Shown here: one piece after another, positions 60,801 through 64,000 of the stretch | Layout of the letters: the number at the start of each line of letters is the position of its first letter | Numbering within the stretch: the stretch's first letter is position 1 | Origin: Candidatus Saccharibacteria bacterium UBA1932 | Lineage (GTDB): Bacteria > Patescibacteriota > Saccharimonadia > Saccharimonadales > Saccharimonadaceae | DNA: 64,000 nucleotides | Assembly: GCA_002337095.1 (NCBI GenBank) | Contig: DDFI01000001.1 | Span: 57,546-121,545 of the forward strand | Direction of reading: 5' to 3' | Notes under the pieces: generated by a model | Told to the model about the DNA's origin: nothing | Databases searched by the model: none | The model's input: the letters and a program-made list of their open reading frames with translations, nothing else | Made by a program: the position numbers and the translations under genes

Positions 60801-63800
60801 CTTGCATCGTAAATAGTGTCCTGGCCGTCACCAAGCTTGAATGCATACGTATCATCACCGCTACCGCCTGTAATGTAGTCATTGCCCCGACCTCCCTGCA
60901 AGAAATCATTGCCCGTCGACCCCCACAACGAGTCACTGGCGTCACCACCAATTAGCTGATCACCCTGAATACTCGCTGACAAATTGCTACCCGCTGCGCC
61001 TGCATACAGAATGTTCTTTTGGTCGTCGTACCCGGACAAGTATGACCGGCCCTTGTCATACCCGTGTTGCACGCGCGCTTTTTCGAGTATTGTATCAGCG
61101 TTCCAGATTGTGCCATCCGTAAATGTAATATGTTCAATTTTGTTGGCATCTTGGCGCTCCCACGTATAATCGTTATGGAAATAGTCACGAATTGTTATCT
61201 TGTCGCTACCATTTACTGTCAGCACCAAGTCTGAACCACGCGAGTCAGTGCGGCCCACCGTGATCATGTCAGCGGTGATGCCCTTACCAAATATCAGCTT
61301 GTCCGCACCATCGCTATCATATATCGTGTCGCTGCCATCACCTAGATGGTACATATACACATCATCGCCCGTCCCACCATACAAGTAATCGTCACCGGCA
61401 CCACCGTCTAGATAGTCATTCCCCGCGGCACCGTTGAGCCCATCATTACCGGCATCACCATACAGAACAGAACCGCCTGCATGAGCATACAAATTATCGC
61501 CGTCGTCGCCACCCGCGACCGTTTGACCAGCAACTTGCGCGGTAATAGAGTCGTAGGTTGCAGTGCCCTGCAAAACCCCTACACCGACGACGTCAATCGC
61601 CCGCGCCAACTCGCTAGACTGAAGGGCGTATTGCTGGCGGAATGCGCTCCAGCCATCTAATTTTTGCAAGTCGTAGCCCTTCATGACGCGCGCAAATTCG
61701 CCGAGCAACGCCACGCCCGCCGCGTGATCGGTGACGAGTTTGTCGTCGATCGTTGTCGTAACTTTTGAGAAGTCAAGCGTAATGCTGCCGCTCTCATTAG
61801 TATTGTAGCCAATTGCATTAACTACGTCTTTTAGCACTGTTTTGCTGACCAATGCTGCGTACATTCGGTCGCTTAGTTCGGCGTATGCCTGCTTTAACAT
61901 CGGTGCTGCGTTGTTGTTGGGTGAACTGCCATTTGTGCCCGTGAAGTTAGTTCCCATAAATTTCTCGAGCACTGCAAGCTGGCGTGCATCAATCAATCCA
62001 CCGCGACTCGTAGGGTCAATCGTATCACTACTCGTCCAGCGGTAAAGGATTTGCGCCATCAACGCATCGCGTGTCGCCACATCTGGTGCATCGACAAATT
62101 GCTGCACCAGTGTCTGCAGCGTGCCACTTACATCCTGAGCCATTGCAACGCGCAGCGAGCTAACATTTCCTGCACCGGCCAGATCGGGCAAAAACGCAAT
62201 TTCAACAGGAATATTCATACCCTCATGGCTGATATCTCGCGAATCGCTAGCATTACGGCCGAGCAAATATTCACCGGCCGCACCCTGCGTACCATTGCTC
62301 CACGTAAAGCTGCCCAGCCGCTGCTGGATATTGTTCATCACATCCGTTGCCTGTGTGACAACCGAGCCGACATTGATCGAGGTGATGCCGATAGATGTCA
62401 GGTCGGCAAGCTCATCCGCGCCCGAGACGCCATCGCTGTTTGCATCACGCCATATGCGCAACTTACTAAATACTTGGTCATGCGCGTCGATCCTTCCGTC
62501 ATGGTTGAGGTCAAAATCTGCCAGCGCTGCGAAGCCGCTTGATGCAACGGTGCCGTCGGCGAGGACTGTTCGATCACCAAATAACTCTTTGCCGCTGGTG
62601 ATCTTGCCGTTGCCGTCACGGTCAAGTACCAGCAGACCATCACCCTTGCCGACCCAGGCGGTGCGTTCGGCGTAGCCATTGGCATCAACGTCGAAATACA
62701 TCGTAGAGGTAGACAGGTTCGTCGTCTGGATACCGTTGCCGTCGAGGTCGAGGATGAGGGGGTCGACGCGGACGGCGGTGGTAGCAGAGCTAAATTTTTT
62801 ATCAATGCCCAGAAGTGATTCAAGGGTAACTTGACGTCCAAAGATATCCTTGCTACCTATGAGGTCAGATAATAACGAAAGCAGATTAATCGTGAACTCA
62901 CCAGTATCACGCTGAACTGTCGCAACCATTTTATCGAGATCACTACCTATTGCAAAGCATGCGCCACCAAGACTATCCCCCAAAAAAACAATACCGGTAC
63001 CTAGGCCTTTACTTGCAGCAGTAAAAGTATTTATATAACTATCTGCAACAATATACAAACCACTACCGAGCGCTTGACCGATATAGTTTGACGGGGGACC
63101 CAATGTATTGATGATAGCTGTCGCGCTTTGTACGATCTGCGTGCCGACTACAACATCGGCTGACGGTCCATGCACTTCTTCATTCAGTATAGTTTTTCCG
63201 TCCTTATCCTTATGCGTCATAGCCGATGAGCCATGTGATCCCCATATCCATTCATCTAGCGATTTGCCGAGTACGCTGTTACTGAATATATCTGATAGTC
63301 TGAATGAGCCTATAAGTCCATTCTCGTGAATTTCACTATTGGAGTCTCTGAGGTACCTAGTCTCTCCCATCCTTGTACCATAGTTTCCCACGCCATCGTT
63401 TTCATTGACATAATTTATGATTTGCCCACTAAACATCTCTGGTTTTAGCATCGGCAACAAGTTTGAGATTCCAACCGCGTTGAATGTCGTAGCATCACCT
63501 CCAGTCTCACACGACAGAAACTGCGCCAGCCCACCACCGAGCGAGTGGCCTGTAAAAGTTACGCCACTCGAGCGCACATAGCTTGCAAGACTTTCGTTAG
63601 TGACGAGTGATTGGCCGCTTTCCTCCGTCAACACACTTTGGACGAATTTGTATGCGTCGATAAACTGTCGCGGTATGCCATCCTTGGCAAGATTAGGCAT
63701 AGTAATCTGGGCGTCGGTGACTTTGTCTTCGAGCGTATCTGGCTCCGTCCCGCGGAAAGCAAAAACTATCTTACCATCAGGAGATTTCAGGGCAACGCCA

Positions 63801-63997
63801 GCGAAACCACTGGTGGTATTAGGCTCAACATTTAACAATGTATGGAAACGTAGTGGCGCGTTAGCGTCTTTAAGTTCGGAGAGTTCCGGCCTAGAAAGAT
63901 CATCTTCAGTGATTAGATGCTGCGCTATTAATGAGCCTAATGTTTGATTTCTAAATTGTGTACTCAGCTTAATATAAGAAAGCTGAGACAGACACAT
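57863..63997 (-). CDS. Large RTX Ca-binding secreted protein: N-terminal lipase, FrpC-like self-processing module, RTX/hemolysin-type repeats; 5' end may lie beyond the window
   Basis: FAFRGTE, GHSLGG lipase; VD-PLILDLDGNG SPM; many GGxGxD nonamers; six DLVL…TIRDYF…IEx..F.DG..W units; C-terminal LLVQAMASF. Confidence 0.95.
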   Translation of the reverse strand: MCLSQLSYIKLSTQFRNQTLGSLIAQHLITEDDLSRPELSELKDANAPLRFHTLLNVEPNTTSGFAGVALKSPDGKIVFAFRGTEPDTLEDKVTDAQITMPNLAKDGIPRQFIDAYKFVQSVLTEESGQSLVTNESLASYVRSSGVTFTGHSLGGGLAQFLSCETGGDATTFNAVGISNLLPMLKPEMFSGQIINYVNENDGVGNYGTRMGETRYLRDSNSEIHENGLIGSFRLSDIFSNSVLGKSLDEWIWGSHGSSAMTHKDKDGKTILNEEVHGPSADVVVGTQIVQSATAIINTLGPPSNYIGQALGSGLYIVADSYINTFTAASKGLGTGIVFLGDSLGGACFAIGSDLDKMVATVQRDTGEFTINLLSLLSDLIGSKDIFGRQVTLESLLGIDKKFSSATTAVRVDPLILDLDGNGIQTTNLSTSTMYFDVDANGYAERTAWVGKGDGLLVLDRDGNGKITSGKELFGDRTVLADGTVASSGFAALADFDLNHDGRIDAHDQVFSKLRIWRDANSDGVSGADELADLTSIGITSINVGSVVTQATDVMNNIQQRLGSFTWSNGTQGAAGEYLLGRNASDSRDISHEGMNIPVEIAFLPDLAGAGNVSSLRVAMAQDVSGTLQTLVQQFVDAPDVATRDALMAQILYRWTSSDTIDPTSRGGLIDARQLAVLEKFMGTNFTGTNGSSPNNNAAPMLKQAYAELSDRMYAALVSKTVLKDVVNAIGYNTNESGSITLDFSKVTTTIDDKLVTDHAAGVALLGEFARVMKGYDLQKLDGWSAFRQQYALQSSELARAIDVVGVGVLQGTATYDSITAQVAGQTVAGGDDGDNLYAHAGGSVLYGDAGNDGLNGAAGNDYLDGGAGDDYLYGGTGDDVYMYHLGDGSDTIYDSDGADKLIFGKGITADMITVGRTDSRGSDLVLTVNGSDKITIRDYFHNDYTWERQDANKIEHITFTDGTIWNADTILEKARVQHGYDKGRSYLSGYDDQKNILYAGAAGSNLSASIQGDQLIGGDASDSLWGSTGNDFLQGGRGNDYITGGSGDDTYAFKLGDGQDTIYDASGTDTLQLGSGITADMVQVSRTDSRGSDLILSIRGTHDKMTIRDYFHNDYTWERQDTNKLEHIIFADGTAWSVDQVIEKARTIVASSSGGYLGGFDDQNDIATGSDNYDYISTGGGDDVIDAGAGNDVAYAGDGNDILRGGAGNDLLNGDNGDDLYVGGAGDDWMQDYGGNDAYVFARGDGSDTIYDSVGNDQLIVADGITPEDIVVSRTDSRGSDLVLTIRGTDDKVTIRDYFHNDYTWERQDANKLEQIVFADGSIWSPETIIEKVRTQHATDSGWSYLSGFDDQKNILYAGNAGSVLYARDRGDELYGGISADSLNGGAGDDWIRGGKGDDYLNGGAGNDVYAFGKGDGQDTIYDWAGNDTLTFGDEITPDMVQVSRTNSRGSDLVLSIRGTDDRVTIRDYFHNAYTWERDDTNKLEKIMFAGGVSWSADQVIEKARYINASAEGGNIYGFDDQNDVVTGSDTYDYISTGGGDDVIDAGAGNDIVYAGAGNDVLHGGAGNDLLSGGNGNDIYLGGAGDDYIEDYEGDDTYVFARGDGSDTIYDAAGSDQLIFADGTAPNDIVVSRAGYRGSDLVLIVRGTNDKVTIRDYFHNGYTWERADANKLETIQFAIDGTRWTADQVLEMARTVRANADGGSVSGYDDQQNILKGSATYDYIYAGSRGDALYGEGGDDTLYGGAGNDLLVGGAGSDTLQGNAGDDVYVFNIGDGQDRVYDAAGNDTLRFGNGITASDVILSRTDSRGSDLVLSIKGTEDTVTVRDYFHGDYTWDRDDTNKIEKFVFDDGTIWNADKVLEEVRSVRALSTGGYCCGYDDQQNIIRGSAQLDYVYAGSKGDTIYGNGGDDVLNGGAGDDTFVMNLGDGQDAIYDCAGKNTLLFGEGITTDALTLVRSGDDMKICNIASHDSVTVRHWFSGSNYQLDSVKLADSHSMSRANMQLLVQAMASFGDTHGGMSWETALTQKPDEAATVLSQYWTAPTA
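58510..61186 (-). repeat. Higher-order intragenic repeat in the RTX gene (513+564-nt alternating units, 1077-nt period)
   Basis: DYFH codon anchor (plus-strand GGAAATA) at 58510, 59023, 59587, 60100, 60664 and 61177. Confidence 0.9.
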
Positions 63998-64000
63998 ATA

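Follow-up and report, generated by a model that had tools for sequence, protein, structure and literature searches.

The locus described here lies at one end of a window of 64,000 nucleotides from Candidatus Saccharibacteria bacterium UBA1932 (contig DDFI01000001.1, positions 57,546 to 121,545); unless a contig is named, coordinates are those of this window. It comprises the gene of a large RTX exoprotein (57863..64000, minus strand), which by the list of open reading frames and its translation has 2044 codons counted from a methionine at the window edge, and, downstream of it, genes for a type I secretion system (T1SS). We read the N-terminal part of this protein, with a probability of about 0.6, as the exchangeable effector head of an RTX protein that a Saccharibacterium (TM7, candidate phyla radiation or CPR) would export by type I secretion, and as accompanied by a candidate immunity partner.

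Organisation of the RTX locus

Residues are numbered throughout from the methionine within the window (M1, 63997-63995). Contigs from several metagenomes that are 100% identical to the window (L007 and L009-L015) continue beyond its edge and place the true start 15 nt outside it, with the additional codons MQPLE; the full-length protein therefore has 2050 aa and is almost complete in the window. The initial annotation of this DNA had described the open reading frame as clipped by the window edge, which it is, but the loss amounts to just 15 nt, or five codons. Examination of the sequence past position 64000 located both this start and an upstream gene. All of the motifs quoted in that annotation occur in the minus-strand frame 57863..63997. 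FAFRGTE begins at F79 (63763), and the codon for Ser152 of TGHSLGG lies at 63544-63542, exactly where it had been placed. Asp201 of NENDGV is encoded at 63397-63395 and His255 of GSHG at 63235-63233. The codons GTC CGC GTC GAC CCC CTC ATC CTC GAC occupy 62773-62747, with Asp412 at 62764-62762 and Pro413 at 62761-62759.

From the N-terminus, the protein consists of a class-3-lipase-fold head (aa 1-299; 63101..63997, minus strand), a non-conserved helical linker (aa 300-408; 62775..63100, minus strand), a FrpC-type self-processing module (SPM; aa 409-587; 62237..62773, minus strand) and a chassis of seven modules in which RTX nonapeptide repeats are combined with an HCBP_related domain (57990..61459, minus strand). 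The chassis is matched by the Pfam families HemolysinCabind (E 1.4e-63, in 10 stretches) and HCBP_related (E 3.8e-82), and a motif count gives 21 motifs of the GGxGxD type and 7 RDYF cores. The C-terminal ~40 residues (57863..57989, minus strand) are presumed, from their position alone, to be an uncleaved type I secretion signal.

The SPM corresponds to PF26745 and, in a phmmer search against the PDB, aa 413-587 match the FrpC SPM structures 6SJW/6SJX (6sjw_A, E 8.1e-35). In the residue-for-residue alignment with FrpC, the predicted scissile bond, Asp412-Pro413 (62759..62764, minus strand), stands in register with Asp414-Pro415 of these structures. All four Ca2+-binding motifs of the module are kept (D417/D419/N421/G422, DRDGNGKITSGKE, DLNHDGRIDAHD and DANSDGVSGADE, by alignment with the residues given in PMC7078468), as is the equivalent of FrpC D478.

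Downstream on the same strand lies the gene of a HlyB-type ABC exporter with an N-terminal C39-like domain (55548..57740, minus strand). It is recognised by the NCBIfam model TIGR01846 (921.8 bits against a cut-off of 725.6) and by the Pfam families Peptidase_C39, ABC_membrane and ABC_tran. By eye, the position of the catalytic cysteine in the C39-like domain is occupied by proline, a replacement that would fit an RTX exporter. The next gene encodes a HlyD-type membrane fusion protein (MFP; 54230..55561, minus strand; TIGR01843, 315 bits against a cut-off of 208.7; Pfam HlyD_3). Components of a type VI secretion system (T6SS; VgrG, Hcp, PAAR) were not found among the scanned genes of the window, and the head is linked to a T1SS instead.

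Predicted fold and active site of the head

The assignment of the head rests on Pfam, on an AlphaFold2 (AF2) model, on Foldseek comparisons and on the conservation of the triad columns. Lipase_3 (PF01764) matches aa 78-162 with 28.7 bits against a cut-off of 22 (E 1.4e-6), and the precomputed Pfam annotation of an identical protein (P0001) lists PF26363 'Phospholipase-like' together with PF26745 'SPM'. When 34 relatives with 24-37% identity were aligned across the catalytic core, R82-G83-T84, D95 and H151-S152-L153-G154-G155 proved invariant. Among the sequences with a residue at the respective column, the serine is conserved in 35 of 35 (S152), the aspartate in 33 of 33 (D201) and the histidine in 31 of 32 (H255); accordingly, the triad proposed in the initial annotation is the conserved one.

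The alignment of relatives served to build the AF2 model, in which aa 1-220 (pLDDT mostly >87) and aa 250-290 are predicted with confidence. Its best matches in the PDB are structures of the Aspergillus feruloyl esterase A (1uza), followed by Rhizomucor lipase, Yarrowia lipase and the mono/diacylglycerol lipases of Malassezia (ids including 4tgl and 3o0d). A T6SS lipase effector of Enterobacter cloacae (9cys_A, E 2.4e-4, 19% sequence identity) is also among them, and the Foldseek probability is 1.00 for 1uza, 4tgl, 3o0d and 9cys alike. Sequence and model together identify the head as a class-3-lipase-type alpha/beta-hydrolase whose predicted triad is Ser152-Asp201-His255. The lipase signature claimed in the initial annotation is thus borne out by the above-threshold Lipase_3 match, by PF26363, by the fold and by the triad, and its likeness to T6SS lipase effectors (Tle) by the match to 9cys. 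The DUF2974 affinity that it had also suggested fared less well: the profile (PF11187) has no match on this protein, either in our local Pfam scan or in the precomputed list for P0001, and is annotated on several relatives of 30-40% identity.

The prominence of feruloyl esterase A among the structural neighbours raises the alternative that the head acts on a non-phospholipid ester of the host envelope, for example mycolyl-arabinogalactan or other wall-linked esters of Actinobacteria, and would thus serve to breach the wall rather than as a membrane phospholipase. In this respect, Gordonia amarae, which bears mycolic acids, is lysed by a Saccharibacterium from wastewater, and infection requires intact mycolic acids (PMC11880426). 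However, both the precomputed Pfam name 'Phospholipase-like' and the presence of a T6SS phospholipase effector among the structural matches argue against such a specificity. So does the candidate immunity partner described below, because a protein for self-protection would be most useful to a producer whose own membrane is a substrate of the head. We consider this alternative improbable.

A search of the GTDB species representatives with the single head protein did not retrieve close relatives, and the head-ascertained loci discussed below were obtained with an alignment of Saccharibacterial heads instead. In the AF2 model, aa 300-412, the linker region, form low-confidence helices, and no similarity is detectable in this region even among Saccharibacterial homologues. 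The hydrophobic, glycine-rich stretch GLGTGIVFLGDSLGGACFAIG (aa 331-351) falls within it; since its Kyte-Doolittle mean is merely 1.3-1.5, it does not qualify as a clear transmembrane helix.

A compositional break at the edge of an exact repeat

According to the initial annotation, the DNA changes in composition at the Asp-Pro junction, and calculation of the G+C content at third codon positions (GC3) on both sides agrees with this. GC3 is 0.419 in codons 1-413 and 0.529 in the remaining codons, against a background of 0.62 +/- 0.08 in the 28 other genes of the window. Divided more finely, the gene shows values of 0.45 for the lipase core, 0.31 for the linker (aa 300-408), the lowest in the gene, 0.655 for the first 110 SPM codons and 0.51-0.60 for the remainder, with 0.51 in the RTX repeats. 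The lipase core and, above all, the linker are therefore AT-rich by the standards of the window, and the first 110 codons of the SPM stand at background level. The strongest single change point in the 2044 codons follows codon 405 (window position 62782), seven codons before Asp412; its z value of 4.36 was reached by none of 2000 codon permutations.

This change point coincides with the edge of an exact repeat of 332 bp (62443..62774, minus strand), which comprises VRVDP and the first ~110 SPM codons and is identical to positions 9476-9807 of contig L016. The second copy belongs to contigs with core genes (LeuRS, NusB, RNase III, S16 and TrmD) and is a headless SPM stub there. An AT-rich tail containing a stop codon comes next, and behind it lies the gene of a membrane protein of 221/242 aa. 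Both copies begin at the identical nucleotide, 10 nt ahead of the Asp codon. In three sequencing runs from different studies (X2, X3 and X7), the depth of the 332-nt unitig is twice that of each of its four flanks, which implies that both copies reside in one genome at a ratio of 1:1. Several assemblies break precisely at the repeat edges; contig L001, for instance, ends at 62774.

It might be objected that the compositional step is incidental, a matter of amino-acid usage or local codon bias, and that the head is fixed and vertically inherited. Indeed, every Saccharibacterial homologue found carries a lipase head, and the GC3 of the lipase core (0.45) is close to that of the RTX repeats (0.51). 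However, it is at third codon positions that the change point reaches significance, it falls at the edge of an exact two-copy repeat, and independent pairs of species display sharp breaks in DNA identity at the same place (see below). These observations already contradict the objection, and we attach almost no weight to it.

Contig L007, in which the head of the window gene (head B) is joined through the repeat to the stop codon and the 221-aa gene, was considered as a natural truncated variant. A mis-join through the exact two-copy repeat would explain it equally well, and it was not used as evidence of rearrangement. It is flanked by insertion sequence (IS) at both ends; mis-assembly, an excised circle and a tandem duplication are the options, between which short reads do not discriminate. 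Tandem Repeats Finder detected no tandem repeat structure relevant to the head. Elsewhere in the window, a pair of genes for an ABC ATPase and an FtsX-type permease (14778-17438, plus strand) has a GC3 of 0.39-0.40 against the background of 0.62 and is probably another AT-rich acquired island.

Exchange of heads between species

Comparison of loci from different species reveals mosaic proteins. Locus L106 shares 94% identity with L112/L129 in the SPM, 96% in the post-SPM region and 95-96% in the RTX part, as against 39-43% in the head and 31-33% in the linker. The converse is seen between L106 and L108, whose heads, linkers and SPMs are 99-100% identical, as against 66% identity in the post-SPM region and 35% in the RTX part. 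At the DNA level, identity between L106 and L112/L129 rises from ~0.45 to >0.9 about 30 nt upstream of the Asp codon; between L106 and L108, it drops from 1.0 to 0.5-0.7 about 630 nt past the Asp codon, just after the SPM. Since the breakpoints of both comparisons fall at the edges of the SPM, this module is a joint at which recombination recurs, and the break in the window gene lies there as well.

As judged from these alignments, the head-plus-linker is a recombination cassette. The modular, swappable head on a conserved SPM-RTX chassis that the initial annotation had proposed accordingly finds support in nearly identical chassis (94-96%) under divergent heads (39-43%), in the converse pair, and in an orphan head that ends in an SPM stub.

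Upstream cassettes and the partner protein

The contigs give a composite gene order beyond the window: core genes; the headless SPM stub with its tail; the 221-aa gene; in most samples, an IS-like insertion; head A; a 261-aa gene; and head B, the window gene. Head A is an orphan lipase head of 486 aa, 33% identical to that of the window gene, and ends ...RIDPLVLDLNNDG... with a further ~40 residues and a stop codon (the DPLVLDL SPM stub). The 261-aa and 221/242-aa proteins are paralogues (31% identity, E 3e-16). All of these upstream cassette genes (head A, 261-aa and 221-aa) are AT-rich, with a GC3 of 0.34-0.41. The stop codon of the 261-aa gene (L007 2394-2396) directly abuts the ATG of the window gene (L007 2397).

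Alternative gene orders upstream of head A were resolved as the presence of the IS-like insertion, which has 20-bp inverted ends and an 8-bp duplication. In most assemblies it lies between the 221-aa gene and head A, with the inverted ends GGTTCAAGACTAGTTAACTC and the duplication AATAAATA (L016 10658-10792; L007 1-105; L010 11-30). In L010, the same IS end abuts a site inside the 221-aa gene, and the insertion is thus polymorphic.

The 261-aa protein matches no Pfam family, and a word-indexed protein search gave zero relatives. An exhaustive HMMER search placed it in a family of at least 200 clusters of proteins of 220-280 aa, in which a basic N-terminus is combined with a single transmembrane helix, the conserved core YLxxKYxxxFxV...DxYxxAxWS and a C-terminal cysteine pair. 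These features indicate a single-pass membrane protein with a domain that would face outward. In the confident AF2 model of the partner (pLDDT 92), a mixed alpha/beta domain comes after a long helix. A partner gene stands directly upstream of the head gene in 47 of the 49 head-ascertained loci of Saccharibacteria, in up to five copies, and in 2 of the 20 loci from other phyla. Conversely, a profile of the partner retrieved 29 loci from GTDB, all of them Saccharibacterial; in 18 of these, a partner gene lies immediately upstream of a lipase-head gene and on the same strand, often in two to three copies with short head fragments between them. The combination of head, SPM and RTX repeats is found in 19 of the 49 loci, the others encoding heads fused to RTX repeats without an SPM or stand-alone enzymes of ~370 aa. 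Many heads lack an SPM, being RTX fusions or stand-alone enzymes of ~370 aa (L101, L116, L122, L128, L143-L152 and others), and all of these keep the upstream partner gene.

The initial annotation had anticipated an immunity or FrpD-like gene just beyond the window. A gene that could fill the former role is indeed found directly upstream, with its family represented in 47 of 49 loci; the likeness to FrpD in fold and lipoprotein nature does not hold. FrpD is absent from the top 50 Foldseek matches of the partner in the PDB, the best of which is 4gl6, and the partner has a transmembrane helix and no lipobox. A FrpD-type fold is thus unsupported.

Lipase-specific foldases (Lif) of Pseudomonas and Burkholderia are membrane-anchored, all-helical proteins whose genes are operonic with those of their lipases. 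The strict adjacency of partner and head genes on the same strand, abutting or overlapping, and the N-terminal membrane anchor with an outward-facing domain may hint that the partner is such a foldase or secretion chaperone and not an inhibitor. Yet its predicted mixed alpha/beta sheet domain is unlike Lif, it is not matched by Pfam Lipase_chap, and neither arrays of two to five divergent partner copies nor arrays that lack a lipase would be expected of a dedicated foldase. On the grounds of fold and profile, a Lif-type function is unsupported, and there is little likelihood that it applies here.

A more serious alternative is that the protein is a surface-tethered feeding lipase and the partner a FrpD-like dock or anchor. 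The aspartic anhydride left by Ca2+-triggered SPM cleavage would then link the clipped head covalently to the anchor or to the host surface; displayed in this way where epibiont and host touch, the lipase would harvest lipids for a lipid-auxotrophic cell. The model for this is FrpD, which is encoded directly upstream of frpC, is anchored at the surface and, according to PMC5233953 and PMC5472700, binds the clipped N-terminal fragment with nanomolar affinity; the gene order here is the same. The partner family is, moreover, conserved in nearly all Saccharibacterial loci and occurs in housekeeping contexts as well. PAP2, PLD-like and GDSL-lipase genes are also present in the window. The partner, however, lacks the nature of a lipoprotein, and FrpD is missing from its best structural matches. 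Because many Saccharibacterial heads without an SPM keep the partner, the linking of head and partner cannot be what the partner does in general. Finally, antagonistic toxin-immunity loci are typically marked by the features seen here: orphan heads, multi-copy partner arrays in which head fragments decay, AT-rich cassettes and mosaicism between species. The feeding lipase stays alive, as an unlikely explanation, because conserved partner arrays occur in housekeeping contexts and because partner and head co-vary imperfectly.

The 261-aa membrane protein is, in our view, most likely an immunity protein. Orphan head A, with its SPM stub and the neighbouring paralogous membrane-protein gene, and the headless second copy of the 332-bp repeat resemble by analogy the orphan toxin/immunity cassettes of polymorphic toxin loci; here they would stand on the 5' side, in mirror image, owing to the C-terminal secretion signal. 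A toxin-immunity reading is likewise favoured by the orphan heads, the decayed head fragments, the multi-copy partner arrays and the AT-rich mosaic cassettes. Identities between heads and between the adjacent partners are correlated (Mantel r = 0.49), with clear exceptions and with the confounding effect of shared genome ancestry.

Proposed mode of action and evidence to the contrary

The domain organisation, the junction with its repeat, the cassettes and their synteny, and the mosaicism emerge from comparing sequences and structures; the mode of action that we derive from them is a prediction. The ABC/MFP pair would export the protein unfolded, with the C-terminus leading, and extracellular Ca2+ would then fold the RTX blocks and the SPM. 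Once folded, the SPM would cleave the Asp-Pro bond and free a lipase or phospholipase of ~45 kDa with a reactive aspartic anhydride at its C-terminus, which may either be hydrolysed or become cross-linked to a nearby lysine. The freed head would attack membrane or envelope lipids of another bacterium, the host of the epibiont or a competitor, and the partner, acting as an immunity protein, would neutralise it on the surface of the producer. Either damage to host membranes or the harvesting of lipids, both suggested in the initial annotation, may be the outcome.

Several observations weigh against the reading of an effector head with an immunity partner. In the SPM, the equivalent of FrpC D579 is a glutamate, and cleavage at Asp-Pro is predicted only. 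No outer-membrane component (OEP family) was seen among the scanned open reading frames of the window, and export is predicted for a presumably monoderm cell; Saccharibacteria are thought to have no outer membrane. Feruloyl esterases stand beside lipases among the top structural neighbours of the head, so that a lipid is no more than a candidate substrate. Contig L007 (JGI 3300026282, 4952 bp), in which head B runs through the 332-bp repeat into the stub tail and the 221-aa gene, may be a mis-assembly. The heads exchanged in Saccharibacteria are all lipase subtypes, never another class of enzyme. As for the partner, its sole clear neighbour in the PDB is 4gl6, a DUF5037 protein of unknown function, and it does not co-vary strictly with the head subtype: L121 and L129 share 81% identity in the partner and 44-45% in the head, and L124 and L121 share 90% in the head and 24% in the partner. 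Ten of the 29 partner loci, from about ten species (L103-L105, L109, L114, L115, L117 and L125-L127), are arrays of two to three partner genes, and a lipase is absent within 6 kb of them. In the single array that was inspected (L104), the neighbours are housekeeping genes (FolD, a histidine kinase, pyruvate kinase, PGK and TIM). Such arrays fit orphan immunity and also a housekeeping role.

Relation to known systems

The closest counterparts are FrpC/FrpD of Neisseria meningitidis and ApxIVA of Actinobacillus pleuropneumoniae, which share the Asp-Pro SPM, the RTX repeats, export by a T1SS and a variable N-terminal domain of ~350-640 aa (PMC7078468, PMC5472700). As in FrpC/FrpD, the gene of a small surface-anchored protein lies directly upstream, FrpD being known to bind the N-terminal fragment. 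The differences are considerable, however. No enzymatic function is known for the head of FrpC, which is taken for an adhesin, whereas the head described here is a predicted lipase-fold hydrolase; FrpD is an outer-membrane lipoprotein, whereas the partner is a single-pass membrane protein of different predicted fold. Unlike in FrpC/FrpD, the producer belongs to the CPR, and orphan head cassettes and the exchange of heads between species are documented here.

In architecture, the protein also recalls the Family I.3 lipases (TliA of Pseudomonas fluorescens, LipA of Serratia), in which an N-terminal lipolytic domain is joined to C-terminal RTX repeats and exported by a dedicated ABC/MFP pair (PMC3430570). 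These enzymes are smaller (~50-65 kDa), with few RTX repeats and no SPM, so that the lipase stays on the repeats. They are nutritional exoenzymes of Gram-negative bacteria, and the abstract of PMC3430570 describes no partner or immunity gene. The T6SS Tle/Tli pairs of the Enterobacter cloacae complex (9CYS) offer a functional parallel as well as a structural match: a class-3-type GxSxG lipase is directed against neighbours, and an immunity protein located in the membrane or periplasm is encoded adjacent to it. Tle effectors are delivered by the T6SS, however, and not on an RTX/T1SS carrier, and the Tli immunity family is unrelated to the partner. Among monoderms, TslA of Staphylococcus aureus has its lipase toxin domain at the N-terminus and a region for secretion targeting at the C-terminus; its immunity proteins are membrane-associated and occur as tandem arrays. 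TslA differs in its targeting by the type VII secretion system (T7SS/LXG), in the lack of RTX repeats and SPM, and in an unrelated immunity family.

Polymorphic toxin loci (CdiA/TpsA-tpsC, MafB-CT, Rhs) combine a conserved delivery region with a sharply bounded variable toxin, an adjacent immunity gene and arrays of truncated-toxin cassettes, and a short conserved stretch serves as the recombination joint (PMC5472700). In the present locus, the self-cleaving module would be the joint. Of the features of such loci, we find a demarcated variable head with exchange and orphan cassettes that share the junction sequence. The C-terminal position of the toxin is not found: the head is N-terminal here, the orphans lie upstream and the immunity-like gene precedes the head, whereas the toxins of polymorphic loci are C-terminal and their orphans lie downstream.

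Outside the Saccharibacteria, the N-terminal domains on the best relatives of the SPM include M23 peptidase, SLT, GH108 with PG_binding_3, phage lysozyme, NlpC/P60, Ntox44, DUF6973 and phospholipase-like domains. The variety of heads on SPM relatives in other bacteria (M23, SLT, GH108, lysozyme, NlpC/P60, Ntox44, lipase) supports the polymorphic-toxin-like modularity supposed in the initial annotation. Two contigs carry three to five consecutive head-SPM genes with differing heads, interleaved with small unannotated genes, and the DNA copies of the SPM on them are 68-91% identical. These multi-cassette contigs are L130 (1-8747) and L131 (1-21605), from groundwater and from an NCBI metagenome-assembled genome (MAG), with SLT, M23 and unknown heads; L131 also contains genes with a ParB_N domain and repeated intergenic elements of ~80-190 nt. 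Of 119 relatives (P0049-P0167), 64 have Asp directly before the conserved SPM proline, 44 have Ser, 5 have Thr and 1 has Cys. The Ser, Thr and Cys variants thus define a large SPM subfamily without the scissile Asp, which may, from its sequence, cleave differently or not at all.

The components are individually known, namely class-3 lipase effectors, the SPM, RTX/T1SS export and orphan toxin/immunity cassettes; their arrangement is undescribed in the literature searched. That search, which did not cover subscription journals, returned no prior account of SPM-RTX proteins as N-terminally polymorphic effectors with an upstream partner and orphan cassettes, nor any of RTX/lipase systems in Saccharibacteria. 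Variability of the FrpC N-terminal domain has been noted and was attributed to immune pressure (PMC5472700). For a wastewater Saccharibacterium, the mechanism of lysis was described in 2025 as unknown (PMC11880426).

These considerations may be combined into a broader, tentative proposal, which we regard as possible and at present doubtful. SPM-RTX proteins would constitute a general, unrecognised class of type-I-secreted polymorphic effectors, whose N-terminal enzymatic heads (lipases, peptidoglycan hydrolases, Ntox44 and others) are released by extracellular Ca2+, perhaps welded to their targets through the anhydride, and exchanged by recombination at the SPM with upstream silent head/immunity cassettes. 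The Saccharibacterial lipase and its membrane-anchored immunity family would be a tool to damage, lyse or strip lipids from hosts, and FrpC/FrpD of Neisseria a derived member of the class. The FrpC-type SPM, known mainly from pathogens and from protein-ligation engineering, may accordingly be the joint of an N-terminal polymorphic-effector system with many antibacterial heads; such a role, if true, would change the reading of SPM-RTX proteins in general. More immediately, a predicted self-releasing secreted lipase with its partner, present in nearly every Saccharibacterial locus examined, including those of Nanosynbacter MAGs, is a candidate for how CPR epibionts injure, lyse or take lipids from their hosts. 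The locus also adds a case of HlyB/HlyD-type RTX export in a lineage thought to be without an outer membrane.

Source organism, occurrence and other features of the window

The DnaE protein encoded in the window is 63-76% identical to that of 80 loci, nearly all of them from MAGs of Candidatus Saccharibacteria, Saccharimonas or Nanosynbacter, which vindicates the 'CPR cell' of the initial annotation. PheT gave a single match (54%, in a 'Nomurabacteria' MAG), which was judged insufficient for taxonomy. Metagenomes of wastewater, activated sludge and bioreactors, dated 2013 to 2023, contain near-identical sequence. RNA-seq runs from wastewater contain short contigs of 100% identity, one of which crosses the junction; this is weak evidence of expression.

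A gene for a PAP2-family phosphatase (53657..54217, minus strand; Pfam PAP2, E 1.6e-12) lies directly downstream of the HlyD-type gene. No such gene was seen near homologous loci, and its membership of the export system is uncertain. A PLD-like gene of the cardiolipin-synthase type (39883-40989, plus strand) stands 13 kb from it; both are lipid-handling genes near the lipase locus. A GDSL lipase/acylhydrolase domain (aa 374-674) is found in a protein of 993 aa (23743-26724, minus strand), the second large protein of lipolytic type in the 64 kb. The window contains no rRNA, tRNA or Rfam features. A transketolase split into separate N- and C-terminal genes (34252-36109, minus strand) and a PilB-type T2SSE ATPase (4668-6290, minus strand) are both consistent with a Saccharibacterial genome.

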